Origin: Candidatus Amesbacteria bacterium GW2011_GWC2_45_19
Lineage (GTDB): Bacteria > Patescibacteriota > Microgenomatia > CAZETR01 > Amesbacteraceae
Assembly (NCBI GenBank): GCA_001001555.1
Contig: LCKS01000004.1
Coordinates: 36,130 to 100,129, forward strand
DNA: 64,000 nt
Reading direction: 5' to 3'
Made by a program: the position numbers and the translations under genes. The notes beneath the pieces are model-generated. The model was given only the letters and a program-made list of their open reading frames with translations, made no database searches and was not told where the DNA came from. This document shows, one piece after another, positions 3,148 through 61,201 of the stretch (positions within the stretch are counted from its first letter, which is position 1; each line of letters starts with the position of its first letter).

Positions 3148-3219
3148 TTGCTTCTCTATAGCGCAAAAGACCCCTCCGGTATCTCTACCGTTCGGGGTTT
3201 CTAAGCTAGCCTGACTTTA

Positions 3220-8021: not shown

Positions 8022-9792
8022 AGATGCGGCGGACGCCGGCGGATACCGCCTCCTGGCGGGTTATCTTTATCCTACCAATTTCCCCAGTGGATTGCACATG
8101 GGGACCGCCGCACAGCTCTTGGGAAAAATCCCCTATTGAATAAACCGAGGTCACCTCGGGATATTTTTCCGGGAAAAAAGCCAGGGCGCCTTCGGCCAGA
8201 GCTTGGGCTTTGGGCATTTCCACTCGCTCAATTTTAATGTCCTCTCCGATCTTTTTATTAACAATTTCCTCGACCTGTTTTATTTTGTCATCGGTAAGTT
8301 TTTCCGGATGGGAAAAATCAAAGCGTAGGCGTTCGACGGTAATATTGCTGCCTTTTTGAGACACGTGAATCCCCAGTACTCTCCTCAGGGCCGCGTGTAA
8401 AAGATGTGTGGCGGTGTGATACTTAGTAACAATTTCTGATTGGTCTTGCAGTCCTCCTTTGAACATGCTTGCGGAGGCAGTGCGAGATAACTTTTTATGT
8501 CTTTCGTTTATATGATCGAATTCATTTTTATCAAGGTCTTTCCCTTTTTGTTTAAATAATTCTTCTGTGACTTCGTAAGGGAATCCATATGTCTGATATA
8601 GATTAAAGGCGTTAAGCGCGTTCAGTTGGTTGTCTTGATATTTATTAAACTCTCGCAATCCTCTGTCTAAAGTGTCGCTGAATTTACTCATTTCTTCCTC
8701 TATTATTGACCGTACAGTTTCTCTGTCTTTAGATTCTTCGAAATACACGGCGTCTCTGTATGTTTCTAATACTGAATGACAGATAGCTTGAAAGCCAGGA
8801 ATTGGAGTTAGCCCGCCCTTGAGTTGATGCATCTTTACCGCAGCACGTCGAAGTAATCGACGAAGAAAATATCCTTGAGTCTTATTTGAGGGGGTTACTC
8901 CGTCTACCATCAAAAATGTGGCCGCCTTGAGATGGTCGGTTATTGTTCTCATTGCAGGCTTGTTTTGGTCGTCGGAATACTTTTTATCTGTATAGTCTTC
9001 GACCGTTTTAAGTATTATGGAAAATAGATCTGTTTTAAAAATGTCCGGGTCGTGGTTAACTGCGGCAGTGATTCTTTCCAATCCCCCGCCAAAATCTATG
9101 TTTTTTTTGGCTAGCGGTTCAAATCCATCTTTGGTTTTTTGATAGGTCATGAAGACGTTGTTGCCGATTTCCAAAAATCTGCCGCAGTCACAGTTGGGAT
9201 GGCAGGAGTCGCCGAATTTCGGATCGTGGGGGGTACCAAAATCATAAAAAACTTCAGAGTCTGGGCCGCCGGGTTCGCCAATTGGCATGCTGGCATAACT
9301 GCTTCTGGCCCACCAATTTTTTTCCACACCATAATAAAAAATGTGTTCTGACGAAACTCCCAACTTTTTCCAATTATCCGCGGCTTCCTCATCACGGGGA
9401 ACTTGATTATTCCCTTCAAATACGGAAACGTATAACCTTTTGGGGTCTAAGCCTAATTCTTTGGTAAAAAATTCCCAAATCCAGGCTTGTTGTTCGGCCT
9501 TGAAATAATCTCCCAGAGACCAGTTGCCCAGCATTTCAAAAAAAGTGGTGTGACAGTTGTCCCCAACTTCTTCAATATCCTGGGATCGGAAACATTTTTG
9601 GGAATCAACTAAACGGGTGCCTAAAGGGTGGGGTTGGCCCAGTAAGTATGGCAACATGGGTTGCATACCGAATCCGGTAAAGAGGGTAGTGGGATCGTTT
9701 TCGGGAACGAGAGGCGCCGAGGGAATTTCTATGTGTCCCCGGTCTTTAAAAAACTTCAGATATTTAGCTCTGACATCATTGGCCGAAACCAT
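8002..9792 (-). CDS. alaS: alanine--tRNA ligase (short form lacking C-Ala domain)
   Basis: KYLKFFKDRGHIEIPSAPLVPENDPTTLFTGFGMQP class II AlaRS N-terminus; editing domain HTATHLLHAAL and CGGPHV; 596 aa. Confidence 0.85.
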   Translation of the reverse strand: MVSANDVRAKYLKFFKDRGHIEIPSAPLVPENDPTTLFTGFGMQPMLPYLLGQPHPLGTRLVDSQKCFRSQDIEEVGDNCHTTFFEMLGNWSLGDYFKAEQQAWIWEFFTKELGLDPKRLYVSVFEGNNQVPRDEEAADNWKKLGVSSEHIFYYGVEKNWWARSSYASMPIGEPGGPDSEVFYDFGTPHDPKFGDSCHPNCDCGRFLEIGNNVFMTYQKTKDGFEPLAKKNIDFGGGLERITAAVNHDPDIFKTDLFSIILKTVEDYTDKKYSDDQNKPAMRTITDHLKAATFLMVDGVTPSNKTQGYFLRRLLRRAAVKMHQLKGGLTPIPGFQAICHSVLETYRDAVYFEESKDRETVRSIIEEEMSKFSDTLDRGLREFNKYQDNQLNALNAFNLYQTYGFPYEVTEELFKQKGKDLDKNEFDHINERHKKLSRTASASMFKGGLQDQSEIVTKYHTATHLLHAALRRVLGIHVSQKGSNITVERLRFDFSHPEKLTDDKIKQVEEIVNKKIGEDIKIERVEMPKAQALAEGALAFFPEKYPEVTSVYSIGDFSQELCGGPHVQSTGEIGRIKITRQEAVSAGVRRIYATAVS

Positions 9793-18100: not shown

Positions 18101-18219
18101 TAGTAGGTGGGCAGGAATTGTTTGAGATTGTTTTTCATTTCCACACCCAATGGTCCGTAGTCATAAAAGTCCTGCAAGCCTTCGTTTTTGCACAGGCTGA
18201 CAATTTTTTCCATGAGGTC
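18100..18219 (-). pseudogene. remnant of lon-like gene 3' end. The last 28 nt are nearly identical to 19100..19127.
   Basis: Minus-strand [43 protein letters not shown] ends NLKQFLPTY*, identical to the C-terminus of ORF 19096..20076. Its TAA overlaps the ATG of the phosphoesterase gene. Confidence 0.5.
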
Positions 18220-18383
18220 CATGTGTTTAGTTTACAACAAAAAGCTCTTCTTTCCAATTCCGACTCGATTTGTCGTTTGGCGCGGCCGCGACTAACGGCA
18301 AAATTGACGGGTACTGACAAATAGTTTGTGGGGATAAAATACTTCAGTAGTTTTCTCCAACTCAATTTTCTTTTCATCGGTAG

Positions 18384-18803
18384 TCATCGTAAGGGGTTGA
18401 TTACTTTAATATCTTTCATAGGATAGTGCTTGATGTTCATGGTCAAAAGAGTCAGTTTGTGAATTTTGCAAGTTGCGGCGATTAAATAATCTATTAAGTT
18501 AATATTAACGTTTCGATACTTATTCCAATACTCTCCTGCCAGTTTTGCTATCGCGAAGTTTATGGGGACCTGGTTATGCCACTTGAAAAAGTGTCTGTTC
18601 GAGGCCTCTTCTTCGGGAAAAGAATTTTTGTAAATTTCGCCAACCGTTAAGATAGAGATAGCTACGAACTGATCATCCACTATTTTTGAAACTGCTTCAA
18701 TTGCCCTTTCATTCCCCCTGATTATCCAAATTGAGACATCTGAATCAAGTAAAAATCTATCTTTCCTTTTTGGGCTTGGCATAGGGAATATATGAATAAT
18801 CAC
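18384..18803 (-). CDS. PIN-domain toxin (VapC-like)
   Basis: FLLDSDVSIWIIRG N-terminus and DYLIAATCKIHKLTLLTMNIKHY C-terminus; AT-rich. Confidence 0.7.
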   Translation of the reverse strand: MIIHIFPMPSPKRKDRFLLDSDVSIWIIRGNERAIEAVSKIVDDQFVAISILTVGEIYKNSFPEEEASNRHFFKWHNQVPINFAIAKLAGEYWNKYRNVNINLIDYLIAATCKIHKLTLLTMNIKHYPMKDIKVINPLR

Positions 18804-19068
18804 GGTTAGTTGCGGCCCGGCCTTCGTTTACCCAGTTTACAATGTTTTCCATGTTTTCCCATCCAGGCCGGCTTCTTACGCCCAACACACCGGTAAACTT
18901 TCTCAACGCATCCGCATAAGAAACTTTTCTCTTTCTCAATTTCAACTGCTTGCCAACCGCCATAGCCACAAAACGGCTTCTTTGCCTAGTGGACACTTGA
19001 TCTTTCAGGTCTGAGTATAAGTCCCAAGGCAACGTAAAATTCACTCTAGTCGTTGTTTGCATATACAC
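18757..19068 (-). CDS. ribbon-helix-helix (CopG-like) antitoxin
   Basis: TRVNFTLPWDLYSDLKDQVSTRQRSRFVAMAV RHH pattern; overlaps the PIN gene. Confidence 0.6.
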   Translation of the reverse strand: MYMQTTTRVNFTLPWDLYSDLKDQVSTRQRSRFVAMAVGKQLKLRKRKVSYADALRKFTGVLGVRSRPGWENMENIVNWVNEGRAATNRDYSYIPYAKPKKER

Positions 19069-19095
19069 ACTTTATATCACCATTATACACACTTG

Positions 19096-20076
19096 TCAAT
19101 AGGTGGGTAGGAATTGTTTGAGGTTGTCGGCGGTAATATAAAATTGGTTGCCTTTGCCTTCGACTATGAGTTTGGCGGTTTTGCGGACGATGCCCTGGAT
19201 AGTGCGCTCCAGAGTGCGGATACCGGCGTCAAAGCCTAGGGGGCGGACGATTTGGGGCCAAACGGCGTCGTCGATTTTGAGAGCTGAATCCGGAAGAGAA
19301 GCATTTTTAATCTCGATGGGCAAAACGTAATCGCGGGCGATGGTGATTTTTTCCTCGTCGTTGTAGGAGGGCATAGTCAGAGGCTCGAGCCGGTCCATGA
19401 CGGCAGCAGAAATATTGGTAGTGTTGTTACAAGTGGCAATAAACAGAACCTGGGAGAGATCGAAAGGATAATCAATGTAATGATCGGTAAAACCGGCATT
19501 TTGTTCCGGGTCGAGAAGCTCGACCAATACACCCATGATTTCAGAGCGGGCGGAATCGGCCACCCGGTCGATTTCGTCCAGTAAAATTACCGGGTTTTTG
19601 GTTTGGGCCCGGCGCAGATTTTTGATGATTTGGCCCGGCTCGGCGTCGGGGTAAACCCGGGACTGGCCACGCAAGTCTAAGGCCAAGCCCATGCCGCCAA
19701 AGGGAATGCGCACAAATTTTCTGCCCATAGCTTCGGCGATGGATTTGGCCAGAGTGGTTTTGCCGGTACCCACCAGGCCCACCAGCAATAAAATCGGGGC
19801 GTGATAAATGGTGCTTTTTTGCTGATTTAGGATCAGGACTGAGAGATATTCCAGAATGCGTTGTTTTAAATCTTCCAGGCCGTAGTGGTGCCGGTCGAGA
19901 ATTTGCTTGGCGTGACCCAAGTCTAAAATATCTTTGGTGGTTTTGTCCCAGGGAAGATTAGTAATCCAATCAATATAGTGGGCCGCCTGCTCGGGATTGG
20001 TGCCCCGAGTCAAAACCTCTTCGGCTTTGGCCCGCAGGTCATCCGGCAGCGTGGCAGTCTTTAACTTGTCATCCAT
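19096..20076 (-). CDS. Lon-like AAA+ ATPase module (no N-domain, no S16 protease domain)
   Basis: Residue-level match to the Lon AAA+ region: HYGLEDLKQRILEYL, GTGKTTLAKSIAEAMGRKFVRI, ILLDEIDRV, LDPEQNAGFTDHY, ATCNNTTNI, DRLEPL. It ends ([10 protein letters not shown]) exactly where canonical Lon continues into the protease domain. Confidence 0.75.
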   Translation of the reverse strand: MDDKLKTATLPDDLRAKAEEVLTRGTNPEQAAHYIDWITNLPWDKTTKDILDLGHAKQILDRHHYGLEDLKQRILEYLSVLILNQQKSTIYHAPILLLVGLVGTGKTTLAKSIAEAMGRKFVRIPFGGMGLALDLRGQSRVYPDAEPGQIIKNLRRAQTKNPVILLDEIDRVADSARSEIMGVLVELLDPEQNAGFTDHYIDYPFDLSQVLFIATCNNTTNISAAVMDRLEPLTMPSYNDEEKITIARDYVLPIEIKNASLPDSALKIDDAVWPQIVRPLGFDAGIRTLERTIQGIVRKTAKLIVEGKGNQFYITADNLKQFLPTY

Positions 20077-20091
20077 TGGTTCTAGTTTACA

Positions 20092-22221
20092 TCAAAAGCG
20101 GCGGCGGGTGTCGCGGCGCATGGGGGCACGGAAGCGGTTGTCGGGGCGCCCGCCTTCGCTAAAGCTACGGCGAGGTGAAGGACGGGGCTCACGGGCTTTG
20201 ACTAGAGGCTGGCCGGCCGCGTCGAAAAGCATGGACAGGCTGATACGGTTTTGAGCGTCGATTTCGATGACCCACACCCGGACTTTATCGCCTTCGTGGA
20301 CAATCTGATTGGGATCGGCCACAAAACCCTGGGCCATCTGGGAAACGTGGACCAGGCCGTCCTTGCCGGGCAAAATATTTACAAAAGCGCCAAAAGGCTG
20401 GATGCGGGCCACGGTGCCTTCATAGATTTCTCCGGCTTTGACTTCCTGGCCCAAGGATGCAATCCAACTAATAGCGCCGTTTACACCATCCTGGTCGGTA
20501 CCGGAGATAAAAACGGAGCCGTTATCATTGACATCGATTGACACACTGAAGTCGGCCATGAGTTTTTTGATGACTTTGCCGCCCGGACCGATCAGCTCGC
20601 CGATCTTGTCCACGGGAATAGTGACCACATGAATTTTGGGAGCGTACTGGGATAATTCTTTTCTGGGTCCGGGAATAGTCTTGAGCATGGTTTGCAAAAT
20701 CTGCATGCGGGCGGTTCTAGCCCGGGCGAATGTTTGTTCACAAATATCCAAGGTTAATCCGGGAATTTTGACGTCTAATTGAATGGCGGTGATACCTGTT
20801 TCTGTGCCGGCGACTTTAAAATCCATATCGCCGTAGTGATCTTCCCCACCATTAATATCTGTCAACAGCTGGCGGTCAACCAGACCGATAGAAATACCGG
20901 CTACGGGAGCAATGATAGGAACTCCGGCGTCCATCAAGGACAAGGTTGAACCGCAGGTACTGGCCATGGAAGTGGAGCCGTCGGAGGACATGATTTCCGA
21001 AACCACCCGGATGGCGTAGGGAAAATCAGTTTCAGCAGGAATAACCGGGGCCAAGGCCCTTTCAGCCAAAGCTCCGTGACCGATTTCCCGCCGGCCGGGC
21101 GAACCCATGCGGCCGGTTTCTCCGGTGGAAAACGGGGGGAAATTGTAATGGCACATGTAACGTTTGGTGTCTTCTCCTTCGGCCGATTCCAGAGATTGAG
21201 ACAGAGAGGGGGCGCCGAGAGTTGTGACGGTTAGGACTTGTGTTTCTCCTCTTTGAAAAATGGCAGAGCCGTGAACCCGGGGCAAAACTCCAACTTCGGC
21301 AGAAAGCGGGCGGATTTCATCCAATTTGCGGCCGTCGGGGCGCTGGCCGGCCAGAATATTTTTGCGGAAAGCGGCAGAAAACAATTCTTCAACTATTTCT
21401 TTGACTTCTGCCTGGTCCTGGGGATCAAAGCTGGAAACGAGAGGTTCTATTTCTGCCTCATCCTGCAAATTTTTGGCGGCTTTGCGAACTTGGGCCACCA
21501 GTTCAGAATTATGATCTTTAGCGGTAACAGAAATTTTGTCCCGGCCAATTTCTTTGACCAAGTTATTGATGAGGGAGATAATTTTTTTGTTTTCGGCAAA
21601 CCCGGTTTTCAAAGCTTCCAGGATAGTAGCTTCCGGGACTTGATTGGCCCCGGCCTCAATCATAGGAATAACAGTTTCGGAACTGGTGACAACCAAGTCC
21701 AAATCCACTCCAGCGCGGTTTCCGTTTTCGGGGTTAATCACCAACTGGCCGTCGACCAATCCCATACGAACTGCGGCCACGGGTCCATTCCAGGGAATTG
21801 GGGAAATAGCCAAAGCGGCCGAGGTGGCAATGAGACCTAAAACGTCGGCATCGTTGGCGGTGTCTACGGAGAGGACGGTAATAATTACCTGGACTTCGTT
21901 TTTAAGCCCTTTGGGGAAAAGAGGGCGGATGGAACGGTCAATGAGCCGAGCTGATAAAACTTCGGCGTCGGTAGGGCGGCCTTCGCGTTTAACCCAACGC
22001 GAACCTTTGATGCGGCCGCCGGCATATAAACGCTCTTGGTACTCGACAGATAAAGGAAAATAATCTTTTTTCAGGTCTTCTTTACCCAGAACGACAGTGG
22101 CCAAAAGCGAAGTGTCCCCATAACGGGCAAAAACGGCGCTGGTGGCACGAGAAGCGAACCGACCAACCTCTAAGGTTAAAGTACGTCCGGCTAGTTCTAA
22201 AGTTTTACTGACTAATTTCAT
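20092..22221 (-). CDS. pnp: polynucleotide phosphorylase
   Basis: two RNase PH domains, KH and S1 domains; 709 aa. Confidence 0.9.
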
Positions 22222-46243: not shown

Positions 46244-46651
46244 ATGCCCAGAATCGCCGGACGAGACATTCCCGAGAACAAAAAAATAGAGTTTTCCCTG
46301 CGGTACATATATGGCATTGGGCCGACGAACGCTGCCGGAATTTTAGCCAAAGCAAAACTGGATACGAATAAAAGAACGAAAGACCTGACGGCGGAGGAGC
46401 TGGCCAGACTGCAAAAAGCAGTAGACGAAGTAAAAGTGGAGGGGGACTTGAGAAAAACTGTCCAGCAAAATATATCCAGGTTAAAGGAGATTGGGTCGTA
46501 TCGGGGCCACCGGCACGCTAAGGGATTACCTGTTCGGGGGCAACGAACGCGGACTAATGCCCGGACTAAGAGAGGTAAAAGAATGACCATCGGGGCGCTG
46601 AAGAAAGAGGTGTTAGCTACCAAGGAACCTAAAGTGGAGGAAAAGAAATGA
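46244..46651 (+). CDS. rpsM: 30S ribosomal protein S13
   Basis: [16 protein letters not shown]. Confidence 0.9.
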
Positions 46652-46989
46652 CCGGCAAAGCCTTTATTACGGCCACTTTTAATAACACCCTGGTGACTAT
46701 TACAGACATGGCGGGAAATGCTATTGCCTGGGGATCGGCAGGAGCGGCCGGATTTAAGGGCGCCCGCCGGGCTACTCCGTACGCGGCTACGACGGCAGTC
46801 GAAGTGGTGGCCAGAAAAGCCATGACAGCGGGAATTAAGGAAGTGGAGGTATATTTGAAAGGCCCGGGATCTGGACGAGACGCGGCCCTAAGAGCGTTAA
46901 AAGCGGCAGGATTAAAAATGAATCTGATTGCCGACGTAACGCCAGTTCCGCATAACGGAGTCAGGCCGAGTAAAAAGAGAAGAGTTTAG
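46648..46989 (+). CDS. rpsK: 30S ribosomal protein S11
   Basis: [18 protein letters not shown]. Confidence 0.9.
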
Positions 46990-47024
46990 TTTACCACTTC
47001 CCCTTCTTCGGCTTTTTTGGCGTC
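46987..47024 (-). pseudogene. remnant of dnaK 3' end (38 bp, 2 mismatches to 47590..47627)
   Basis: The reverse complement reads ...[12 protein letters not shown], identical to the DnaK C-terminus. Its first TAG also serves as the rpsK stop. Confidence 0.55.
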
Positions 47025-47058
47025 ATATGTTGGGCTAGTTGCTTGTTATAATGGGAAG

Positions 47059-47592
47059 ATGTTCAAAATATCGCGTTTGCATGTTTTTATCGCAACATCT
47101 TTGGGGGTAGGAGTTCTTATTGGATTTTTAATAGGGAGATATGTTAAGCCGAGGGTAGTTTATATAAAAAAAGAGAAAGAAAAGGTTGTCGTAAAATACG
47201 CTGAAGAAACAGCTGAAAACAGGATAATAAGATGTGGTTTCATCCCAGAAAATTTTAGGACAAACCAGGATCACTTTAGTGTAGTGTCAGGGCCCGATTG
47301 GTCCCCTGACTGCAGGTATATTGCTTGGGGTTTTTGGCAGTCGGGAACTTCATGGCTAGGAGATGATACTCAAGTTGTGTGGGAAAGAAAGTTGGATCAG
47401 CGGGAAGGTTTATATTTATACAACGATCGGACGGGGCGGACTAGAAAAATATACGCCCCTAAAGAACTAGATGAAAGCGTGACTTTTAACAAGTGGGTCG
47501 ATAGTGGTTCTATTGAGTTCGCTGCTAAAAGAATTGGGTATGTGTACGATATCGCGTCCGGTAAAATATCTATACAAGAAAATGGCTATTAG
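47059..47592 (+). CDS. hypothetical membrane-anchored protein
   Basis: Start at [29 protein letters not shown] (the track begins at an upstream TTG); TATAAT 7 nt upstream of the ATG; AT-rich; no motif. Confidence 0.45.
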
Positions 47593-49466
47593 TTTACTAC
47601 TTCCCCTTCCTCGGCTTTTTTGGCGTCGGCTGGTTTTTCTTCCGCGGGTTTTTCTTCTGTGGGAGGTGGGGTTTGCTTATACATTTCGGCCCCTAATTTT
47701 TGCAAAGAATCCATGAGGTCTTTGGATTTGGCTTCCAGATCTTCTTTGGTGCCGGATTCGAGAATATCTTTGAGAGCTTTTACTTTATCTTCTACCTCGG
47801 TTTTAAGTTCAGCCGGGGCTTTGTCGCCGGCATCTTTGAGAGTTTTTTCGGCGGTAAAAATTAAAGAATCTGCCTGGTTTTTGGATTCGATCTTGGTTTT
47901 CTTTTCGGCGTCTTCGGCGGCGTGGGCTTCGGCTTCTTTGCGCATTCTTTCCACTTCTTTTTCATCGAGGTTTGTGGAGTTGGTAATGGAAATGTGCTGC
48001 ATTTTGCTCGTAGCTTTGTCGAGGGCTTTGACATTAAGAATACCGGAGGCGTCAATATCGAAAGTAACTTCGATCTGGGGCACGCCACGGGGGGCAGGAG
48101 GAATACCATCCAGAATAAAGCGGCCGAGAGTTTTGTTATCCGCGGCCATGGGGCGTTCGCCCTGAAGGACGTGGATTTCGACGGAGGTCTGAGAATCAGC
48201 GGCGGTGGAAAAAACTTGAGATTTAGAAGTGGGAATAGTGGTATTCCTCTCTATAAGAGGGGTCATGACCGATCCGAGAGTCTCCAGCCCCAGGGTCAAA
48301 GGGGTGACGTCCAAAAGAACTACATCTTTGACATCGCCTGTGAGAACGCCGCCCTGAATGGCGGCGCCGACGGCCACCACTTCGTCGGGATTGACAGACT
48401 TGTTAGGCTCTTTGCCAAAGAATTTCTTGACCACTTCAATAACAGCCGGCATGCGGGTCATCCCGCCGACCAGGACCACTTCGTTAATTTTAGAAGTATC
48501 GATTTTGGCGTCCTTAAGACAGGCTTTAACTGGAGCAACGGTTTTTTGAATTAGGGAATCCACTAAAGCTTCTAATTTGGCCCGGGTGAGTTTGAGATTT
48601 AAATGCAGGGGTTGGCCGTTATTCTGAGTAATATACGGCTGATTGATCTCTGTTTCCATGGCCGAAGACAGTTCGATTTTGGCTTTCTCGGCGGCGTCGC
48701 GGACGCGCTGCAGAGCTTGGGTGTCTTTTTTAAGGTCCACACCGTTATCTTTCTTGAACTCCGAAACTATCCAATCCATAATTACCTGGTCAAAATCGTC
48801 TCCCCCTAAGTGGGTGTCGCCGTTGGTGGCTTTGACTTCAAAAACGCCGTCGCCCAGTTCGAGGACGGAAATGTCAAAAGTACCGCCACCCAGATCATAG
48901 ACGGCCACGGTGTGGGCATTTTTCTTGTCCAGACCGTAAGCCAGGGCCGCGGCGGTGGGTTCATTAATTATTCTTTCGACTTTCAGGCCGGCGATTTCCC
49001 CGGCTTGCTTGGTAGCTTGGCGCTGGGAGTCATCAAAATAAGCTGGGACGGTAATCACGGCCCGGTCGACGGTGCCACCCAGGTAAGACTCGGCGTGGGC
49101 TTTCATGATTTGCAGAATCTTGGCGGAGATTTCCTGGGGAGTGTAAGTCTTACCTTCGACCTCGACGCAAGCCATATTGTCTTTGCCGGCCACGATTTTG
49201 TAGGGCACCATTTCCATGGTGCGCTTGACTTCGGGGTCGGAAAACTTGCGGCCCATCAAACGTTTGATGGAGTAGATAGTGTTTTTGGAATTTAAGATCA
49301 TCTGGCGTTTGGCGACTTCGCCCACCAGATTTTTGACCGGTTCCACAATAGAGGGGGTGGTGTTGCGGCCGGTGTCCGCAGCGGGGATAACCTTGGGAGT
49401 CCCCCCCTCCATAACGGCCACACAGCTATTAGTGGTCCCCAAATCAATTCCGATTATCTTTGACAT
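47589..49466 (-). CDS. dnaK: molecular chaperone DnaK (Hsp70)
   Basis: [22 protein letters not shown], Hsp70 signatures; 625 aa. Confidence 0.95.
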
Positions 49467-49962
49467 ATGCTTTTATTTTAGCGGGTCTAATAACATAATT
49501 GTTAATTTTATAACCTTTAGTGACTATTTCTGCAATAGTATTATCGGGCTCTCCCGGCAAAGTTTCAAGACATTCGTGTATCTCGTGATTATATGAATCG
49601 CCTATTTTGGGAGAAATTTCCTGCAGACCTTCGGCTGTCAAGACGTCTCGAAATTGCTTAACGGCCATTTGCACCCCCTGATCTTGGGAGTGGATGGCGG
49701 CCAACTCCAAAACGTCTAGAGTGGGCAGAAGTTTGGCCATAATATTAGCCGTGGCGTAAGTGACAAAGTCTTTTTTGTCAGCGTCAACACGTTTAACCAG
49801 ATTATGATAATCAGCTAAGGCCCGTTTCCAGTTTTCTGTAAGGGTTTTAACCGTATCACCCTCGGCCTGCGGGCCACCCCCTCTTAAATCGAGCCTTGGG
49901 CTCGCGTCTGACGCCGTAAGAGGGGGATGGGGGGTGATATTGGGTGATTTTTTAGTCTTCAT
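49444..49962 (-). CDS. grpE: nucleotide exchange factor GrpE (N-terminal region carries in-frame palindromic element)
   Basis: [18 protein letters not shown]...; sits between hrcA and dnaK. Confidence 0.8.
49854..49939. mobile_element. RPE-like nested palindromic element (TIR TATCACCC/GGGTGATA, inner hairpin CCCCCTCTTA..TAAGAGGGGG) within grpE coding sequence
   Basis: Translated as ...[27 protein letters not shown]; homologous to the infB copy at 23939. Confidence 0.55.
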
Positions 49963-49969
49963 TTTTTGA

Positions 49970-50713
49970 TTACCAGCCAGAAGTCATTCCAGAAACCAGT
50001 TCAGAGAAATAACGCAAGGTGGGCAAAACGACGGGAAAATTGAGACGGCAGGGACCGATGAGTCCCAAAATGCCCCGACGGCCGGAGCCGGCAGCAAAAG
50101 GCGTAAAAGCAAAACCGACCGGCTCGAAATAATCTCCCCAACCCAGATCCTGCCCAAAAACGATATGCACTGTTTCGGCGGGGTCATATTGGCGGTCAAA
50201 AAACAGCTGGCGGATGCGAGTTTCCTGATCTAAAAGAGTCAGCACGGTGCGGGTCACGTCAATATCGTAAAACTCGGGAGTAGAAAGAATGTTGGCTGTC
50301 CCGGCATAATACACATCGCCGGCGTCGGTGACGGCTACGGACAGATTTTTGGTGCGGTCAGCCAGGGCCAAGGTGGTATGGCGCATCAGGCGGTCAAAAT
50401 CGAAACGGGAGTCCCAAACTTTTTCTTTGGCGGCCACTTCCTCCGTCACAGACATCTTTTTCTCTTGCATGAGGTGGCCGATGTAAAAGCGCAGAGCTTC
50501 CGGGGTAGGCACCCGGCCGGCAGAGGTATGGAGTTGTTTTAACAGACCCACCTCGGTCAGAGCGGCCATTTCGTTACGAATGGTGGCCGGGGAAACACCT
50601 AGGGAATATTTACGGTCCAGAACTTCGCTGCCTACCGCTTCGGCGGTGTTGATATATTCCTCGATCAGACATTTAAGGATCCGGATCTGGCGGGTAGTAA
50701 GGTTGGTGTCCAT
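49970..50713 (-). CDS. hrcA: heat-inducible transcription repressor HrcA
   Basis: N-terminal wHTH TTRQIRILKCLIEEY; 247 aa; upstream of grpE-dnaK. Confidence 0.85.
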   Translation of the reverse strand: MDTNLTTRQIRILKCLIEEYINTAEAVGSEVLDRKYSLGVSPATIRNEMAALTEVGLLKQLHTSAGRVPTPEALRFYIGHLMQEKKMSVTEEVAAKEKVWDSRFDFDRLMRHTTLALADRTKNLSVAVTDAGDVYYAGTANILSTPEFYDIDVTRTVLTLLDQETRIRQLFFDRQYDPAETVHIVFGQDLGWGDYFEPVGFAFTPFAAGSGRRGILGLIGPCRLNFPVVLPTLRYFSELVSGMTSGW

Positions 50714-53347: not shown

Positions 53348-55111
53348 TCAATTTACTTTCAAAATCGACAGGAAGGCTTCCTGAGGGAGGTCGATTTTAC
53401 CCACACGTTTCATGCGGGCTTTGCCTTTTTTTTGTTTTTTGAGGAGCTTGTCCTTGCGGGTTTGGTCTCCCCCGGAAAGTTTGGCGATGACGTCTTTGCG
53501 GTAGGCTTTGACGTCGGCCCGGGCCAGAATACGACTGCCGATGGCGGCCTGGATGGGCACCTCAAAGTTTTGCCTAGGAATAATATTTTGCAGGGTATCG
53601 ACTAAACTTTTAGCCAAATACCGGGCTTGGGCGCTGGGGATGATTTGAGACAGGGCCTCTATTTTTTCGCCGGCGACGAGAACGTCTAGTTTAGCCAGAT
53701 CTGCTGCCTGATAACCAGCCAGTTCATAATCCAGAGTGGCAAAGCCCTGGGAAACGCTTTTGAGAGAATCGTAAAAGCCGCGGATCAGCCCGGCCAGGGG
53801 CAGAGAGTAGGACAACTGGACTAAACGAGCCAGGTATTGAATATGGGTTTGAGTACCGCGATGATTCTGGCACAGCCGGATGACCGGACCGATGTATTCT
53901 TGAGGAACAAAAATTGAGAGATTTAACATAGGTTCGCGAATTTCTTTGATGATTGACGGGTCGGGGAAGGCGGAGGCCTGGTTGATAGTTATTAGTTCAT
54001 GGTTCATGGTTAGTATTTGATAGGAAACCGAGGGGGCAGCGGCGATAACATCCAGACTAAACTCACGCTCCAGTCTTTCCTGGACGATGTCGGCGTGAAG
54101 CAGGCCCAAAAAGCCGACGCGAAAACCGTTACCCAGGGCCGGAGAAAATTCCGGAGTAAAAGTGAAAGCTGAATCGGATAGCTGAAGTTTGTCCAGAGCG
54201 CCGCGCAGGATATTTATTTCGGATCCCTCGGTGGGGTAAAAACTGATGAAAACCACGGGTTTTATTAGTTTGTAGCCAGGGAGTGAAACAGCGTTTAAAG
54301 AAGATGAAAGCGTGTCGCCAACAGTAAGAAGAGATAGATCTTTAAGGTTGGTGACAACGTAACCCACCTCTCCGGCTGATAACTTGGGAGAGGGGGTACG
54401 CTGGGGGGTAAAATAACCAACCTCAATAGCTGTGGTTGGGGCGCGGGTGCCTAGCAAAAAGAGTTTGTCGTGTGCTCTAATTTCGCCATCGACAAGCCTG
54501 ACCCAGGCAACCACTCCTAAGTGGGGGTCGAAATTACTATTGAATACCAAGGCCCGGGTGGGCCCGCCTTCGCTAGAGCTACGGCGAGGCGAGGGAATAC
54601 GATGGATGATAGTAGTGAGGAGTTCGGGGACGCCGGCGCCGGTTTTGGCCGAGACCAGTAATGGAGATTCCAAATTTAATATTTCTTTAAGCTGTTTTTC
54701 AGCGCCGGCGATATCCGCGGTAGTAATATCGATTTTATTAATGACGGGGATAATGGTTAGGCCTAACTTTTTGGCTTGGTGATAGTGGGCCAGGGTTTGG
54801 GCCTGAACGCCCTGGGTAGCGTCGACAAGTAAAATCGCTCCTTCGCATGCGGCCAGGGAGCGGCTGACTTCGTAGGAAAAATCTACATGACCCGGGGTAT
54901 CTATCAGGTTCAGAATATAATTCTGGTACTCCATCCGCACCGGTGCCAATTTAATCGTGATCCCCCGCTCTCTTTCGATAGGGTTGCTGTCTAAAAGTTG
55001 GGCCCGCATTTGCCGCTTGGGGACAGTGCCGGTGATTTCCAGCAACCGGTCGGCCAAGGTAGATTTACCATGGTCAACATGAGCAATAATGGCAAAATTG
55101 TGGATATTCAT
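53348..55111 (-). CDS. lepA: elongation factor 4 (LepA)
   Basis: Start at MNIHNFAIIAHVDHGKSTLADRLL (the track N-extension is probably spurious); its ATG overlaps the murJ stop. Confidence 0.85.
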   Translation of the reverse strand: MNIHNFAIIAHVDHGKSTLADRLLEITGTVPKRQMRAQLLDSNPIERERGITIKLAPVRMEYQNYILNLIDTPGHVDFSYEVSRSLAACEGAILLVDATQGVQAQTLAHYHQAKKLGLTIIPVINKIDITTADIAGAEKQLKEILNLESPLLVSAKTGAGVPELLTTIIHRIPSPRRSSSEGGPTRALVFNSNFDPHLGVVAWVRLVDGEIRAHDKLFLLGTRAPTTAIEVGYFTPQRTPSPKLSAGEVGYVVTNLKDLSLLTVGDTLSSSLNAVSLPGYKLIKPVVFISFYPTEGSEINILRGALDKLQLSDSAFTFTPEFSPALGNGFRVGFLGLLHADIVQERLEREFSLDVIAAAPSVSYQILTMNHELITINQASAFPDPSIIKEIREPMLNLSIFVPQEYIGPVIRLCQNHRGTQTHIQYLARLVQLSYSLPLAGLIRGFYDSLKSVSQGFATLDYELAGYQAADLAKLDVLVAGEKIEALSQIIPSAQARYLAKSLVDTLQNIIPRQNFEVPIQAAIGSRILARADVKAYRKDVIAKLSGGDQTRKDKLLKKQKKGKARMKRVGKIDLPQEAFLSILKVN

Positions 55112-56751
55112 TAATTTTGGTCCGGGGCGGGGAGAATGACGGGCTCGGAAGGCGTGGGGGCAAGAATGTTTCTCCATTTGGTAATTCGTTTAATTAAATC
55201 GACGAAAGTGGCCAGTTCTTGAATTTTGAAAACTACCGAGAGAAAGAAATAGACGGACAAACCAATGAGAGTAGTAATTCCGGTCAATAAAAGCAGGGGG
55301 AGAGTCCGGGTAGTATCGAAAACAAACTCGTCCAGAAGGCGCATGGGCAGCCACAAGAAGAGGCCGGTGATGAGGCTGGTAAGAATCATTTTGGCCAGAG
55401 GGACAAAAACCTTATGGGGAGCGACAGAGACGCGGCGGTATAGCAGCCAGGACAGGACTAGGGTTTCTAGGATGGCGGTAGCGGAAATGGCCACCGCGAT
55501 GCCTAAGATTCCCCACCCCAACCAAGTAACGGAGAAAACTGCCAGCAAAGAACTAAAAATGGCGGCCAAGAAGCCCACTAAAAGCGGAGTGCGGGTGTCG
55601 TGTAAAGCGTAAAAACCGCGGATGACTAATTGCATTACCGCGTAGAACGCTGCTGAAGCACAAAGAATGGCCAGGGTTTTGCCGGTTAAAAGAGTAGCGG
55701 CCCAAGGAAAGGTTTTGGCCCCAAAAATAAGACGCACGATGGGAATTCTCAAGATGATAAACAGGGTGCTCAGAGGAAGAGCCATGAAAGCAATTTGTAA
55801 AAATGAGGAGATGAGGGTGCTACGAAATTGATCTAGGTTGGAATGGGCAGCTTCTTTGGCCAGTTGGGGAAAAGCGGCCTGACTGATGGTCACCCCAAAA
55901 AGAGAAGTGGGGATAGTAAAAAGGAGACGGGCGGCATTAAGGAGAGATAAAGAGCCGGGAACCAAAAGCGAGGCTAGAGTAACGGCCACGAACTGTTCTA
56001 TTTGATCAATGCCCAGGGCCAAGACCCGGGGAGGCATGAGCCGGCCTACTTCCCGAACCCCGGGGTGAGAAAAATTCAAGGACAAAGAGGGACGAAAACC
56101 CAAACGCCAGGCCAACGGCAGTTGGATGAGCATGTGCAAAACCGCCCCCAGGACGACTCCCCAAGCCGGTCCGAGAATGCCCAAGGTGGGGGAGAGAAAG
56201 ACGATACCGGCGATAATACCCAGGTTATAGGCCACCGGAGCCAGGGCGGGAATAAGAAAACGCTGGTGAGACTGGATGATGCCGGTCAAAAATCCGGAAA
56301 TGGAAAAGAAAATTTGAGCCACTAACATGATCCGCAGCAACTGAACCATAGTGCCGATTTGGAAAGCGGTAAATCCGGGGGCAATCAGGCGGGAGAGCGG
56401 GTAGGCAAAGACAAAAATCAAAGCCGAGAGAAGCATAAAAATCAGAATAATCAGGTTCATGGTGGTCGAGGTCATGGTCCAGGCTTCTTTTTCATCCTTG
56501 GCCAGATATTTACTAAAGGTGGGGATGAAAGCCGCAGAAAGAGAGCCGATGACCAGAAGTTGAAAAATAGTATCAGGGATAACAAAGGCGGCGTAATACA
56601 CATCCAGCAACTGGGATTGGGCGCTAAAGAAAGAAGAGATAAGCAGGCGGGTTTTGACCAGACCGATGAGGTGGGACAAGCCATAAGTGGCCATAATGAT
56701 AAAAGCGGCGGAGAGAATATGGCTCTGGCGCCGGAAGAAAATATCCCGCAT
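55111..56751 (-). CDS. murJ: lipid II flippase MurJ/MviN
   Basis: 546 aa, about 14 TM segments, MviN-like N-terminus. Confidence 0.75.
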   Translation of the reverse strand: MRDIFFRRQSHILSAAFIIMATYGLSHLIGLVKTRLLISSFFSAQSQLLDVYYAAFVIPDTIFQLLVIGSLSAAFIPTFSKYLAKDEKEAWTMTSTTMNLIILIFMLLSALIFVFAYPLSRLIAPGFTAFQIGTMVQLLRIMLVAQIFFSISGFLTGIIQSHQRFLIPALAPVAYNLGIIAGIVFLSPTLGILGPAWGVVLGAVLHMLIQLPLAWRLGFRPSLSLNFSHPGVREVGRLMPPRVLALGIDQIEQFVAVTLASLLVPGSLSLLNAARLLFTIPTSLFGVTISQAAFPQLAKEAAHSNLDQFRSTLISSFLQIAFMALPLSTLFIILRIPIVRLIFGAKTFPWAATLLTGKTLAILCASAAFYAVMQLVIRGFYALHDTRTPLLVGFLAAIFSSLLAVFSVTWLGWGILGIAVAISATAILETLVLSWLLYRRVSVAPHKVFVPLAKMILTSLITGLFLWLPMRLLDEFVFDTTRTLPLLLLTGITTLIGLSVYFFLSVVFKIQELATFVDLIKRITKWRNILAPTPSEPVILPAPDQN

Positions 56752-58305: not shown

Positions 58306-59561
58306 GAAAAAGAGAGCTGACCATTCCTACAATCTTGGGGGTTCTGGCCATAATTGGGGGACTGGTAGGGGGGATGGTGTTATTGAACAAACCGTTACGG
58401 AATTTGGTGGGAGCTAGTCCGGAGGAAACTCCGAAAGAAGTCAAAATTACTAATATTTCCGACACAAATTTTGTAGTCAGCTGGGTGACAGACAAATCTA
58501 CTTCCGGTTATATCCAATATAATGGAGAATTGGTGGTATCCGACGACCGGGATCAGGAAAGGGGCGAAATTGGCAACTATTTTACCCATTTGGTAACGGT
58601 CAGGGGGCTGAAACCGGCTACCAAGTATAGCTTTAAAATCGGGTCCGGGGGAGATTTATACGAGGTGACGACAGCCATGACGGCGGGACAACCTCCGGCA
58701 GCAGACGTGGCATATGGACAAGTGGTGACGGCCAGCGGCGATCCGGTAGAAGGAGCTATTGTGTATTTATTGATGCCGGGAGCGGTGACCCAAGCCGCCA
58801 TGACCAAGCCCTCTGGATCGTGGGTTATTCCCGTATCTGCCGCCCGCAGCGCAGATTTAACCAGCTTCGCAGCTTACGACCGGGAAAAAGAACGGGTAGA
58901 AATTGTGGTCCAGGTGGGAATGTTGGGAACGGCGACAATAAATACGACGGCTGGAGCGACTAAACCAGTGGCAGAGATTGCTTTAGGAAAATCCAGGAAT
59001 GAGCCAGAGCCAACTACCGGATCAAAATTTCCGGCTATGGACGTGGAGAAAGAATTGGTAATTTTGACGCCCAAGTCGGGAGAGAGAGTAAATTCCCCAA
59101 AGCCGGAAATTATGGGCAGAGCTCCGGCAGGAAGCCAAGTTACCATTAAAGTGGAATCGTCCAAATTATTTACCGAGACTTTAACCGCCAGTGAAAACGG
59201 GGAATGGACGTATAGTGTTCCTGAAAACTTGGAACCCGGAGAGCATACGGTGACGGTGACGTCGATCATTGACAGTGTAACTAAAACGATCAAGAAGAAT
59301 TTTGTGGTGGAAGCGGCGGGCGTTTCTAACGCGCCAGCCAGAGTGGCTACTCCGTCTGCAACCCTAAAACCGACTCCTACGCCAACGCCGACTCCAACAC
59401 CTACTCCGACGCCAACGCCTACAATTGCTCCCAGAGTCGCTTATCCGTCCACGGAATCCGGCATTCCCGTATCTGGAAATTTGATTCCGACTTTAATTTT
59501 ACTCATACTGGGAACAGGATTAATTGTAGCCGGATATACTGGCTACAATTACAAATTCTGA
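58302..59561 (+). CDS. cell-surface protein: signal-anchor, FN3-like domain, Ig-like region, (PT)n linker, C-terminal TM anchor
   Basis: ITNISDTNFVVSWVTDKSTSGYIQYNGE FN3-like; [16 protein letters not shown]; C-terminal LIPTLILLILGTGLIVAGY. Confidence 0.5.
   Translation: MRKRELTIPTILGVLAIIGGLVGGMVLLNKPLRNLVGASPEETPKEVKITNISDTNFVVSWVTDKSTSGYIQYNGELVVSDDRDQERGEIGNYFTHLVTVRGLKPATKYSFKIGSGGDLYEVTTAMTAGQPPAADVAYGQVVTASGDPVEGAIVYLLMPGAVTQAAMTKPSGSWVIPVSAARSADLTSFAAYDREKERVEIVVQVGMLGTATINTTAGATKPVAEIALGKSRNEPEPTTGSKFPAMDVEKELVILTPKSGERVNSPKPEIMGRAPAGSQVTIKVESSKLFTETLTASENGEWTYSVPENLEPGEHTVTVTSIIDSVTKTIKKNFVVEAAGVSNAPARVATPSATLKPTPTPTPTPTPTPTPTPTIAPRVAYPSTESGIPVSGNLIPTLILLILGTGLIVAGYTGYNYKF
59377..59427 (+). 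repeat. tandem PT-encoding dinucleotide-codon repeats within surface protein gene
   Basis: ccgactcctacgccaacgccgactccaacacctactccgacgccaacgcct. Confidence 0.6.
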
Positions 59562-59675
59562 TTTCTAATTTCTAAATCCTAAATAAATTTCAATGTCAAA
59601 ATCTAAAAAGTTTAAACAATTGGAATTTAGATATTATTTAGAGTTTAGATATTAGAATTTAGAGTTTTTTAAAGT

Positions 59676-60614
59676 ATGGATTCTGTCCAAGACCTAAAAA
59701 TAATTATGCCGGGTACGGAGGAGACAACTCCCGTACCGCCTCCGCCCCCACCCACTCCGGTGATTGAACCCCCGACAACTTCAACGCCGGCTCCGGCCAG
59801 TGACAGCGCGCAAGTTATAAAGCCCCGGAAAAAATGGGGTACGGGAGTGCTAATTGGCAGCGCGACCGCATTGATGGTCTTAGTCGTGGGGCTGGGTTTT
59901 GGTATATGGCAAGTCAAGCAAAATCAAAAAATAAAACCGTCGCTAGCAGCTAATTGTCGTTGTATAACTCCAGGAAGTTCTTGTTATGGAGACAGAATTC
60001 CTAATGGTAGTTGTCCACTCGACGCAAATGGCCAAGGTCAGGCTTGTTGTGACAAGGTGGGTGATGACGAAGACGAGAACGGCGATGATAGTGCTAGGCA
60101 CTATATTACATTTACGTGCGATAGGTGTGCCAGCGATAGAAGGTGTCAAACACCTGATATAGGAACTAATCCGCGCTATTCGACGGGGGCGGCTCCCGGA
60201 GCGTGCGCTCAAGTAGATAGTTGTGAGTCACCCGGAAATAGTAATTGTAGAGTAGTATCGTTGTGTGCAGAATCGTGCAGTGGCCCCACCCCAACGCCAA
60301 GGCCAACACCTACTCCCGCCCCAACGCCACCTCCAACGAGTTCGATGTGTCAGAGGATAGATATTTTGAGAAATGGGGTAGTGATTGCTCAAAATCAAAT
60401 TCAAGTTGGAGACCAAGTTGTATTTAGAGGTTTTGCCAGCGCGGTAAATACGACGGTGACGGCTATTAATTTTGCTGTTTCTCAAAACGGAGTCGTTACT
60501 AGTTATGCAGGAACTGGTTTACAGTTGGTGGGTGGGTTATGGCAAGCAGACTCCCCGACTATTACTATAGTTGCCGCTAGTTATTCGGTGACGGCGACAC
60601 CAATATATCCATGA
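59676..60614 (+). CDS. Cys-rich secreted/membrane-anchored protein with Pro/Thr linkers
   Basis: N-terminal Pro-rich region plus TM, at least 16 Cys in the central region, [17 protein letters not shown] linker. Confidence 0.5.
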
Positions 60615-61201
60615 ATTTAGATACGCAGCCAAAAATAAATGTCATTGGGCCGAAAAAGGGGTTGGATTGGCCCAGATTTCCAAAAATAAGTCCAACTTGG
60701 GTGGTGGCGGCAACAGTGGTGTTGGCAATAATATCGGTGATTTCGGCGGTGCTTTTGTATCAAAGAAGGCAGGAGTCGGTGGCGCCGACAGCAGGAATTC
60801 CTAGCCAGGCGGCAGTGGGTACATCTTGTACAATTGCATTTAATGTAACTGCTTCTCCCACTCCGACGCCATCTCCATCGTCTACACCCACACCGTCACC
60901 CACGCCAACGGGAACCCCGGATCCCACCCCAACCCCCACCACTACACCAACCCCCACACCTACTCCATCGCCATCCCCATTCCCCACCCCGACGCCAACG
61001 GGCACTCCACAACCTACTCCCACCCCGACGCCAATTGTGAGCGGGCCGACGCCTACCTCAACGCCGGTGACTATTGTGAGCGGGCCGACGCCCACTCCGG
61101 TAGAATTGGCAAAGGCGGGCGATGTAACCGGAACCTGGACCATCTCAATTGCCGGTATACTGCTTTTGGGCTTGGGAAGCTTACTAATGTTAGCGTTTTG
61201 A
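60611..61201 (+). CDS. PT-rich surface protein with N- and C-terminal TM anchors
   Basis: About 80 aa of PT/PS repeats; tandem 40-bp repeat IVSGPTPT; C-terminus [31 protein letters not shown]. Confidence 0.5.

Follow-up and report, generated by a model that had tools for sequence, protein, structure and literature searches.

A duplicated dnaK terminus at the rpsK–dnaK junction of a Candidatus Amesbacteria genome as the probable scar of a single-gene insertion

The direct repeat that brackets a small AT-rich gene between rpsK and dnaK in this Candidatus Amesbacteria genome is very probably the scar of a gene insertion into the end of dnaK that kept both essential genes, most likely made by an illegitimate join. 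The scar is real but fairly ordinary, and close relatives often differ from one another at the junction where it lies. The window referred to below is the whole 64-kb stretch of DNA that was analysed; its source is a metagenome-assembled draft genome from groundwater. Comparison with related loci leaves the sequence-only reading of the junction partly supported, with three corrections needed to its causal picture. A literature search found no paper on such scars in Patescibacteria, nor on the operon break in Amesbacteria.

The repeat (TTAG…GGCGTC) spans 39 nt; one copy lies at 46986-47024 and the other at 47589-47627, their starts 603 nt apart. It is one base longer than the 38-bp duplication first described and does, as had been proposed, encode the end of DnaK. 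The two copies agree at 37 of 39 positions. Read in the dnaK frame, neither mismatch changes an amino acid, so both copies encode the same 12 C-terminal DnaK residues. When the 500 nt on either side of the bracketed ORF were aligned locally with each other, the score was 33, against 9.4±1.0 (highest 13) for shuffles (n=200; z=23). Direct repeats of 22 nt or more, with at least 85% identity and at most 4 kb separation, number just four in the whole window. Copy 1 (46986..47024, minus strand) is a relic of the dnaK 3’ terminus, consisting of the stop and 12 codons and still joined to rpsK; its first 4 nt are the final T and the TAG stop of rpsK. Copy 2 (47589..47627, minus strand) is the functional dnaK 3’ terminus, within the 625-aa DnaK ORF. 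The leading TAG of each copy was correctly read as the stop of the gene before it, at 46987-46989 for rpsK and at 47590-47592 for the ORF. Past the stop codon, copy 1 is the functional dnaK terminus of a relative, L027, base for base over 36 nt, and it shows no decay; copy 2 differs by two synonymous changes from copy 1 and from the relatives. A longer original duplication was ruled out, as the ORF leader has no homology to dnaK beyond 41 nt.

It is barely credible that this structure is an assembly artefact, whether a chimeric join or a mis-assembly induced by the repeat when the metagenome was binned and assembled. Mis-joins can start from short repeats in a metagenome-assembled draft, but an independent assembly (L001; ENA ERZ909592, 99%) contains the same structure with both copies unchanged. 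A diverged form is present in an unrelated sample (L002), with compensating differences in both copies, and the ORF family is itself real and conserved. The mis-assembly that the sequence-only reading had allowed for is contradicted by these two further occurrences.

On the rpsK side, the ribosomal-protein operon closes with its second-to-last gene, rpsM (ribosomal protein S13; 46244..46651, plus strand; Pfam Ribosomal_S13, E=1.7e-32), and with rpsK (ribosomal protein S11; 46648..46989, plus strand; Pfam Ribosomal_S11, E=1.6e-44), its last gene in the clade. Convergent with rpsK and the ORF is dnaK (47589..49466, minus strand; Pfam HSP70, E=1e-253), the last gene of hrcA-grpE-dnaK, whose upstream members grpE and hrcA occupy 49444..50713 on the minus strand (Pfam GrpE, HrcA). 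This gene order is the same in all relatives examined. The DnaK of the window is 100% identical to that of Candidatus Amesbacteria bacterium GW2011_GWB1_47_26, and the ten-residue DnaK terminus is conserved across Amesbacteria. The genes within ±5 kb are infA, rpmJ, rpsM, rpsK, dnaK, grpE, hrcA, GH39 and AAA_14 only. A tblastn search of the window found no rpsD, rpoA, rplQ or rplM, in agreement with the observation that the operon stops at rpsK and lacks rpoA and rplQ here. The proposal that the inserted gene stands in place of rpoA-rplQ fails: there has been no displacement, as the operon ends at rpsK, adjoining convergent dnaK, in all five related Amesbacteria loci (L027, L028, L029, L030 and L031).

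Two of these relatives, L028 and L029 (DnaK 93% identical), have an unoccupied site at which the convergent rpsK and dnaK overlap by 4 nt (TTAG). Their junction, …AGAGTTTAGTTTACCACTTCCCC…, is the rpsK/copy-1 junction of the window, base for base; the empty-site sequence …AAGAGAAGAGTTTAGTTTACCACTTCCCCTTCTTC… is likewise identical to that junction. Copy 1 can therefore be recognized as the ancestral junction left behind. Judged from these alignments, the position of the rpsK stop inside the dnaK terminus is most probably ancestral and not a product of the duplication, the TTAG overlap being present where the site is unoccupied. Import of copy 1 from an L028-type genome was ruled out, its 3’ half (GGCTTTTTTGGCGTC) being of the window/L027 type.

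The inserted DNA is absent from L028/L029, L027, L030 and L031, and the junction has other occupants: a PF05635 gene in L027 and L030, a 49-aa ORF in L031, and what remains of a PF05635 gene in L002. Neither the intact PF05635 genes nor the 49-aa ORF are accompanied by a duplication. That different small genes occupy this junction in relatives points to an insertion hot spot; the relatives do not share the arrangement of the window minus its duplicate, as their junctions differ and include an empty site. The PF05635 proteins of L027, the closer relative, and L030, the more distant one, are 67% identical. As both have a PF05635 gene at the junction, L028 could have become empty secondarily, and the empty site is only probably the ancestral state.

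L002, a diverged relative from another sample, is an occupied site with an ORF protein 83% identical to that of the window. Both repeat copies are present, over 41 nt at 78% identity, and copy 1 has decayed. Because L002 carries this older, decayed repeat, the insertion must predate the split between the window and L002 lineages. In L002 the ORF has a separate TAG stop that precedes the repeat by 3 nt, and the use of the copy-2 TAG by the ORF in the window is a lineage-specific accident of a 1-nt indel. Copy 1 of L002 has 6-9 changes, and all six differences between the window and L002 versions of copy 1 fall on the L002 branch. Neutral relic status alone does not predict the undecayed copy 1 of the window.

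The intact state of copy 1 could also be taken to mean that both copies are kept as a signal, for example to terminate transcription of rpsK and the ORF, or to pair in antisense with the 3’ end of the dnaK mRNA. Copy 1 and the rpsK end can indeed form a hairpin followed by a U-run (GGCUUUUUUGG). Folding energies, however, were no better than those of shuffles (z = +0.76, +1.68, +0.05, -1.48), a terminator scan made no call at either copy, and the outer stem is not conserved in L028. With copy 1 decaying freely in L002 and copy 2 being plain dnaK coding sequence, we consider a functional role for the repeat highly improbable.

The inserted unique DNA is 564 nt long (47025..47588, plus strand), comprising a short leader and a single-gene cassette; it is GC-poor. 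Its GC content of 40.2%, against 48.0% for the window, lies at the 7th percentile, and its GC3 is 37%, compared with 50-56% in rpsK and dnaK. As the features of a DDE transposon would have it, a target duplication (the 39-41-nt repeat) flanks the insert and the site is unoccupied in relatives (L028/L029). No terminal inverted repeats pair the ends of 47025-47588 or those of the L002 and L012 units, which rules out a transposon, and the cassette holds no transposase or recombinase gene recognizable with Pfam, NCBIfam or PHROGs. No integron attC palindrome was found at the cassette end, which folds no better than shuffles, and no integrase is nearby. No tRNA or Rfam RNA gene was found at the cassette. 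An origin from a phage or plasmid is unlikely, as the viral contigs of the collection searched contain no member of the ORF family and no copy of the repeat core.

Four further cassettes are bracketed by gene-terminus duplications of 27-80 nt, bringing the total to five in about 250 kb of Microgenomates sequence. Elsewhere in the window, a 28-nt repeat (18104/19100) surrounds a PIN-containing cassette. In L028, a 27-nt repeat surrounds a 193-aa gene between murJ and lepA, with empty sites in L030 and L004. L003 has about 80 nt of a PAP2 gene 3’ end around a TPR gene. In L012, a 33-nt repeat that starts at the stop of a convergent gene flanks a 39%-identical homologue of the ORF, and the repeated terminus is present in three copies that bracket successive gene blocks. 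This three-copy terminus resembles a reusable recombination site more than a one-off target duplication.

Such features could be attributed to site-specific integration, with the 39-41-nt repeat as attL/attR and a tyrosine or serine integrase, encoded at another place and acting in trans, to insert a small circle carrying the dnaK 3’ end. Repeat lengths of 27-47 nt are within the range of att cores, and genomic islands target the 3’ ends of tRNA genes and some protein genes. The exact start of the repeat at the target-gene stop codon in the window and in L012, and the threefold L012 array, would fit this model. It nevertheless seems very unlikely to us. No integrase lies within ±5 kb in the window or at any relative locus, there is no tRNA, and both the cassette family and the repeat sequence are absent from the viral contigs searched. 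The other occupants of the same junction have no duplication, and no att core is common to the sites at which the ORF family is integrated. Because the repeats are unrelated between cases and range from 27 to about 80 nt, a single recombinase is an unlikely source.

However the duplication first arose, the unit might now spread by homologous recombination in the host. Exchange between the two repeats would release a circle of the ORF and one repeat; this circle, or a linear ORF-repeat-dnaK fragment, might re-integrate at the dnaK terminus of naive relatives and restore the bracket each time, which would fit the finding that copy 1 of the window matches the functional dnaK terminus of its sub-clade over 36 nt while that of L002 has accumulated its changes. 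A mosaic pattern is consistent with this: at third codon positions the window and L002 agree in 44% of cases (23/52) for rpsK, 67% (116/174) for the ORF and 70% for the dnaK end, a contrast that rests on only 52 rpsK codons against 174 (chi-square p about 0.004; branch asymmetry 1/64). The rpsK 3’ end of the window is closest to that of the empty-site genome L028, and the conserved DnaK terminus would provide a common target across Amesbacteria. On the other side, RecA-dependent exchange would have little to work with in 39 nt, the known occupied genomes that have diverged number only two, and the statistics are modest. Copy 1 might instead be conserved because it supplies the stop of rpsK and its 3’ context. 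Such a spread of the cassette by recombination, taken as the main account of the bracket, seems to us unlikely.

A broader form of the idea would have Microgenomates (CPR), whose genes overlap and leave no spare room between them, recurrently gain single-gene cassettes without dedicated machinery, duplicating 25-80 nt of a gene terminus, with the bracket then serving as a portable homology arm or att-like site. Host recombination would let the cassette loop out and then insert again at the same conserved terminus in a relative. If true, this would cover the rpsK-dnaK cassette, the PIN cassette (18.1-19.1 kb), L028 murJ-lepA, the L012 array and L003 PAP2/TPR; we think such generality unlikely.

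The cargo gene itself (47059..47592, plus strand) has homologues (P0001-P0008) with invariant motifs in their alignment. The ATG at 47059 is the start used in relatives, giving 177 aa rather than the 191 aa first assigned. The TATAAT noted before the ATG is there, at 47047-47052, as part of the gene’s own candidate -10 box, and lies 6 nt, not 7, upstream of the relatives’ start. Preceded by TG, it forms an extended -10-like box, TGTTATAAT (47044..47052, plus strand), identified by reading the sequence and aligning it with L002, where the box is conserved and a 24-nt further leader with GGGAGAGGG follows. A two-hexamer consensus promoter scan did not report the box, and for this reason we only infer a promoter function. 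In this genome the gene seems to have its own transcript, started from the extended -10 box and leaderless or nearly so.

The encoded protein starts with a transmembrane helix, which a linker connects to eight strands that approximate two β-propeller blades with a PD40-like 11-residue motif. The predicted helix and low GC content uphold the description of an AT-rich, membrane-anchored hypothetical gene bracketed by the repeat. The AF2 model has a pLDDT of 75 overall and 86-95 for the 8 strands, and the best Foldseek matches in the PDB are WD40, TolB and S9-peptidase propellers, all weak (E 5e-3 to 5e-2); model and matches agree with a four-stranded antiparallel blade fold. Pfam PD40 was hit by one of eight family members (E=0.068) and TIGR02800 gave E=0.072, both far below cut-off, and nothing in Pfam, NCBIfam or PHROGs scored above threshold. 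Homologues form 122 clusters at E<=1e-10, and positions 80-109 of the family profile match large multi-repeat proteins 5-20 times each. As in PD40/TolB-type β-propeller proteins, the WSPDxRYIAW-type motif of the cargo matches many blades of large propellers; unlike them, the cargo has only about two blades after its membrane anchor. The prediction is of an extracytoplasmic protein, anchored in the membrane and with about two β-propeller blades; it is not a mobility enzyme.

The ORF family occurs in at least six different contexts, with bracketing repeats only in the window/L002 lineage and in L012; the repeat sequences of these two are unrelated. Universal bracketing was dismissed, as significant flanking repeats were confined to the window, L002 and L012 among 15 loci (about 10 distinct contexts). 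In L004, an ORF homologue lies upstream of hrcA. Local relocation from there was ruled out, as Amesbacteria without the ORF have GH39 and hrcA adjacent with no trace of it; the gap is 29 nt in L028.

Taken as the scar of an insertion, the repeat would have arisen in an ancestor whose operon already ended at rpsK and in which the stops of rpsK and convergent dnaK overlapped (TTAG on the plus strand, CTAA on the minus strand). A horizontally acquired, GC-poor single-gene cassette of ~565 nt would have entered the last 13 codons of dnaK, 39-41 nt from the stop, and the target stretch of 39-41 nt would have been duplicated at insertion. Both essential genes would survive because the left copy stays joined to rpsK and supplies its stop, and the right copy completes dnaK. 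The ancestral overlap, the insertion point and the duplication are shown by the comparison with relatives, and the manner of joining is inferred. Most likely it was not site-specific; the ends would have been joined illegitimately, at staggered positions, in the course of repair or replication, and selection would have kept only the event whose duplication covered the overlapped gene ends. Later, homologous recombination through the repeat may have carried the cassette and the dnaK side from one related lineage to another.

Because an empty site is available for comparison, the junction shows how a foreign gene can be gained even where a genome is streamlined and its essential genes overlap: insertion in the coding end of dnaK is tolerated because the terminus is duplicated. 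It also marks the rpsK-dnaK junction as a place of small accessory gene turnover among close Amesbacteria. With five bracketed cassettes, one can test whether gene gain in the candidate phyla radiation is generally marked by long terminus duplications. The cargo belongs to a family of about 100 clusters of hypothetical two-blade propeller proteins with a membrane anchor.

Among known systems, the target-site duplications of IS1634/IS1549 are long direct repeats of variable length, 8-514 bp, and no mechanistic model has been established for such long duplications (PMC2266710). The repeats described here are alike in being long target repeats that vary between events (27 to about 80 nt). They differ in that the insert has neither transposase nor terminal inverted repeats, the cargo is a single structural gene, and different cassettes have no end sequences in common. 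Integrative elements that target gene 3’ ends offer a second parallel, in that the repeat runs from the stop codon, the gene stays intact and the displaced terminus is a relic; here, however, there is no integrase, tRNA target, or viral or plasmid copy, the unit is only ~600 bp, and repeat length and sequence vary from case to case.

Merodiploids of Streptococcus pneumoniae, formed during natural transformation, are a precedent for a duplication that rescues an essential gene hit by a cassette; they arise by unequal or alternative pairing in recombination, and their duplications extend over 100-900 kb and are bordered by IS remnants (PMC3784515). In both systems a cassette in an essential gene is recovered only with a duplication that keeps an intact copy, but the duplication here is 39-41 nt with no pre-existing repeat at the site. 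The setting also recalls hypervariable or flexible genomic islets. These lie between core genes and are exchanged by flanking homology; likewise, one core-gene junction is empty or holds a PF05635 gene, a 49-aa ORF or the cargo ORF in different relatives. Unlike those islets, this one sits where two convergent essential genes overlap by 4 nt, and it is because this overlap leaves no intergenic space that one occupant needed a terminus duplication.

The gene wedged between rpsK and the convergent dnaK is bracketed by a direct repeat of 39 nt, one base longer than the sequence-only reading had claimed, whose copies at 46986-47024 and 47589-47627 (both TTAGTTTAC(C/T)ACTTCCCCTTC(T/C)TCGGCTTTTTTGGCGTC) are 37/39 identical and spaced 603 nt apart. 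A comparison of the 500 nt upstream of this ORF with the 500 nt downstream gave a best local match of 33, against 9.4±1.0 in shuffles (z=23), and the whole 64 kb contains only four direct repeats of similar quality whose copies are no more than 4 kb apart. Neither mismatch changes an amino acid in the dnaK frame, so that copies 1 and 2 encode the same minus-strand peptide; the repeat is, as proposed, a duplicate of the dnaK terminus. The ribosomal-operon genes infA and rpmJ precede rpsM (46244-46651) and rpsK (46648-46989) on the plus strand, while dnaK (47589-49466) lies with grpE and hrcA on the minus strand. The TAG at 46987 ends rpsK and the TAG at 47590 ends the ORF (47059-47592, plus strand), also as claimed. 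The ORF encodes 177 aa from its conserved ATG, rather than the 191 first given, and has no Pfam match; the promoter-like TATAAT before it is present (TGTTATAAT, 47044-47052), at 6 nt from the ATG and not 7. The insert has a GC content of 40.2%, against 48.0% for the window, and a GC3 of 37%, against 50-56% in rpsK and dnaK. The repeat does not make a convincing terminator: no site was called, and fold z-scores ran from -1.48 to +1.68.

Mis-assembly had been named as a possible refutation, but the structure recurs in independent data. The same two copies are present in L001, a near-identical locus from a groundwater run that was assembled independently (ENA), and the same layout is found in L002, a 975-nt contig from a different sample, in which the ORF protein is 83% identical to that of the window and the copies have diverged (41 nt, 78% identity). 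These sequences indicate that the two-copy arrangement is not an artefact. The window shares its DnaK, at 100% identity, with Candidatus Amesbacteria bacterium GW2011_GWB1_47_26.

We located close relatives by DnaK and read their rpsK|dnaK loci, whose arrangements differ. In the Amesbacteria loci L028 and L029 (DnaK 93%), rpsK and dnaK converge with a 4-nt overlap and no gene between them, and their …AAAAAGAGAAGAGTTTAGTTTACCACTTCCCCTTCTTCAGC… matches the rpsK/copy-1 junction of the window base for base; theirs is the unoccupied site. Two others, L027 (DnaK 96%) and L030 (90%, Amesbacteria GWA2_42_12), carry in the junction a 122-128-aa PF05635 (23S_rRNA_IVP) gene on the dnaK strand (6013-6399 and 7905-8273, respectively; proteins 67% identical), and L031 (DnaK 96%) carries a 49-aa hydrophobic ORF (3100-3249). 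The 114 nt separating rpsK, with its own TAG, from copy 1 in L002 are what is left of the rpsK-proximal end of the PF05635 insert (161-270). The PF05635 genes, the 49-aa ORF and the remnant have no terminus duplication of their own.

The absence of rpoA and rplQ after rpsK was correctly noted, and neither these genes nor rpsD and rplM were found anywhere in the window. The implication that the ORF replaced them does not hold, since rpsK is already the operon end facing dnaK in the five related loci that lack the ORF (L027 to L031), as it is in L002; in L010, a Microgenomates contig that is more distant, the order is the usual rpsK-rpsD-rpoA-rplQ-rplM. From the relatives' junctions it follows that the operon break is older than the ORF and independent of it, that the rpsK stop within the dnaK terminus is nothing special to this locus but the ancestral 4-nt overlap, and that an insertion of about 565 nt into dnaK, 39-41 nt from the dnaK stop, left copy 1 as the original junction; no extension of the duplication past 41 nt was found. 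The use of the copy-2 TAG by the ORF is secondary: the L002 ORF stops 3 nt earlier at its own TAG and the window differs by a 1-nt indel. We read the case as the scar of an insertion with a long duplication of its target, in a junction of two conserved genes that is itself hypervariable.

There are signs of later recombination. Past the stop codon, 36 nt of copy 1 are the same as in the functional dnaK terminus of L027, and at the two positions changed in copy 2, copy 1 has the state common to L028 and L030. Because copy 1 of the window matches the relatives' dnaK termini in this way, all six differences from copy 1 of L002 fall on the L002 branch (p=1/64 under equal neutral rates). At third codon positions, the window and L002 agree at 44% in rpsK (23/52), 67% in the ORF (116/174) and 70% at the dnaK end (16/23); for these counts, chi-square p ~0.004. 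Set against L027, L028 and L031, the window has 53-63% in all genes. The rpsK 3' end of the window is closest to that of L028, and that of L002 to that of L027. These thin data suggest an exchange between lineages, either of the cassette with its dnaK side or of the rpsK side, whose breakpoint was at copy 1; alternatively, constraint on copy 1, as the rpsK stop and its 3' context, could explain the pattern. In copy 1 of L002, CTCTCCCTTCTTC (282-294) is 85% complementary to the purine-rich leader/Shine-Dalgarno region of the ORF (GAAGAAGAGGGAG, 348-360), probably a chance effect of composition; the 24-nt leader of the L002 ORF is lost in the window.

The same anatomy recurs elsewhere with different repeat sequences and lengths. 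In the window, a 28-nt repeat (18104-18131 and 19100-19127; 26/28 identical, starts 996 nt apart) brackets a cassette of 40% GC (18132-19099); its second copy encodes the C-terminus (…NLKQFLPTY) of a minus-strand AAA/Lon-lid gene (19096-20076). The cassette, probably a toxin-antitoxin unit of VapBC type, holds a PIN-domain gene (18384-18803) and a 103-aa partner (18757-19068). A 40-aa relic (18101-18223, minus strand) terminates in the first copy; its N-terminal part resembles the N-terminus of glycyl-tRNA synthetase, and it may be a junction made at KNN(L/I)KQ microhomology. In L028, about 27 nt of the murJ terminus are duplicated before lepA (1094-1116 and 1704-1726) and enclose a 193-aa gene of unknown function, which terminates in a CCCACCTTTCAGGTGGG hairpin; the empty site, with murJ and lepA overlapping directly, is seen in L030 (~750-760) and in another contig, L004 (~6076). 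A 33-nt repeat (30/33; 1331-1363 and 2082-2114) surrounds a 39%-identical homologue of the ORF in L012 and starts, as at rpsK|dnaK, at the stop of a convergent gene, here of 146 aa. An ArsR-like gene and one of 139 aa come before a third copy, 1.9 kb on (3976-4003), and this locus looks like an array of blocks split by one repeated site. In L003, a decayed repeat of about 80 nt from a PAP2 gene 3' end (6072-6155 and 8451-8530) surrounds a 738-aa TPR gene.

A HicA toxin gene and a 92-aa partner lie between secY and adk inside the ribosomal operon of L028/L029 (10231-10721), a scan of which found no bracketing repeat; secY and adk overlap by 4 nt in the window. About 130 nt from upstream of secA are repeated just downstream of it in two other loci (L021, 4514-4639 and 7456-7580; L022, 5425-5640 and 8480-8582), at 86-96% identity in blocks and including a TTGATG…TATAAT promoter-like stretch. 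In the window, an 88%-identical 40-nt segment, of unexplained cause, occurs in two unrelated genes, encoding the C-terminal tail of a PNPase-like gene (20143-20182, in 20092-22221) and PSPRRSSSEGG inside a LepA-like GTPase (54557-54596, in 53348-55177). Four copies of a perfect or near-perfect 24-nt palindrome, TCCCCCTCCTAATCTAGGAGGGGG, at gene ends (17586, 24002, 25818, 27011) are probably shared hairpin terminators, and long degenerate ACNCCN runs (59343-61090) yield Pro/Thr-rich linkers in several adjacent ORFs (59676-61201).

A word search with the ORF gave eight homologues, and an exhaustive profile search 122 clusters at E<=1e-10, about 100 of them full-length (165-230 aa). In the alignment, a hydrophobic helix at the N-terminus is followed by a linker of variable sequence, and RCG and EGxYxYNDRT are among the invariant motifs. 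Profile positions 80-109 match large proteins 5-20 times each, as a propeller repeat would. An AlphaFold2 model has a TM helix and eight strands (pLDDT 86-95 in the β part, mean 75), and in the PDB it comes closest to WD40, TolB and S9-peptidase propellers, with weak E-values (5e-3 to 5e-2); Pfam PD40 and TIGR02800 both fell below threshold against the family. The cargo is thus membrane-anchored, with about two propeller blades, and not a recombinase. Other members of the family occur between map and infA, inside the ribosomal operon (L010, L013, L014), directly upstream of hrcA-grpE-dnaK-dnaJ (L004), between a radical-SAM-like gene and one that precedes secA (L017, L021, L022), and in further positions.

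The cassette lacks terminal inverted repeats, neither a tRNA nor an Rfam RNA was found at it, no recombinase lies within ±5 kb, and no viral copy was found. The variable lengths and unrelated sequences of the bracketing repeats argue against a single site-specific enzyme and favour illegitimate joining with staggered junctions. The cassette would have been joined in this manner, and where genes overlap, selection would retain only events whose duplication saves both gene ends. Such an insertion scar is of a known sort; less ordinary are the recurrent 27-80-nt terminus duplications around small Microgenomates cassettes. There are two parallels: IS1634 and IS1549 make direct repeats that are likewise long and of variable length, by no known mechanism (PMC2266710), and transformation-induced duplications save an essential gene into which a cassette has landed (PMC3784515).
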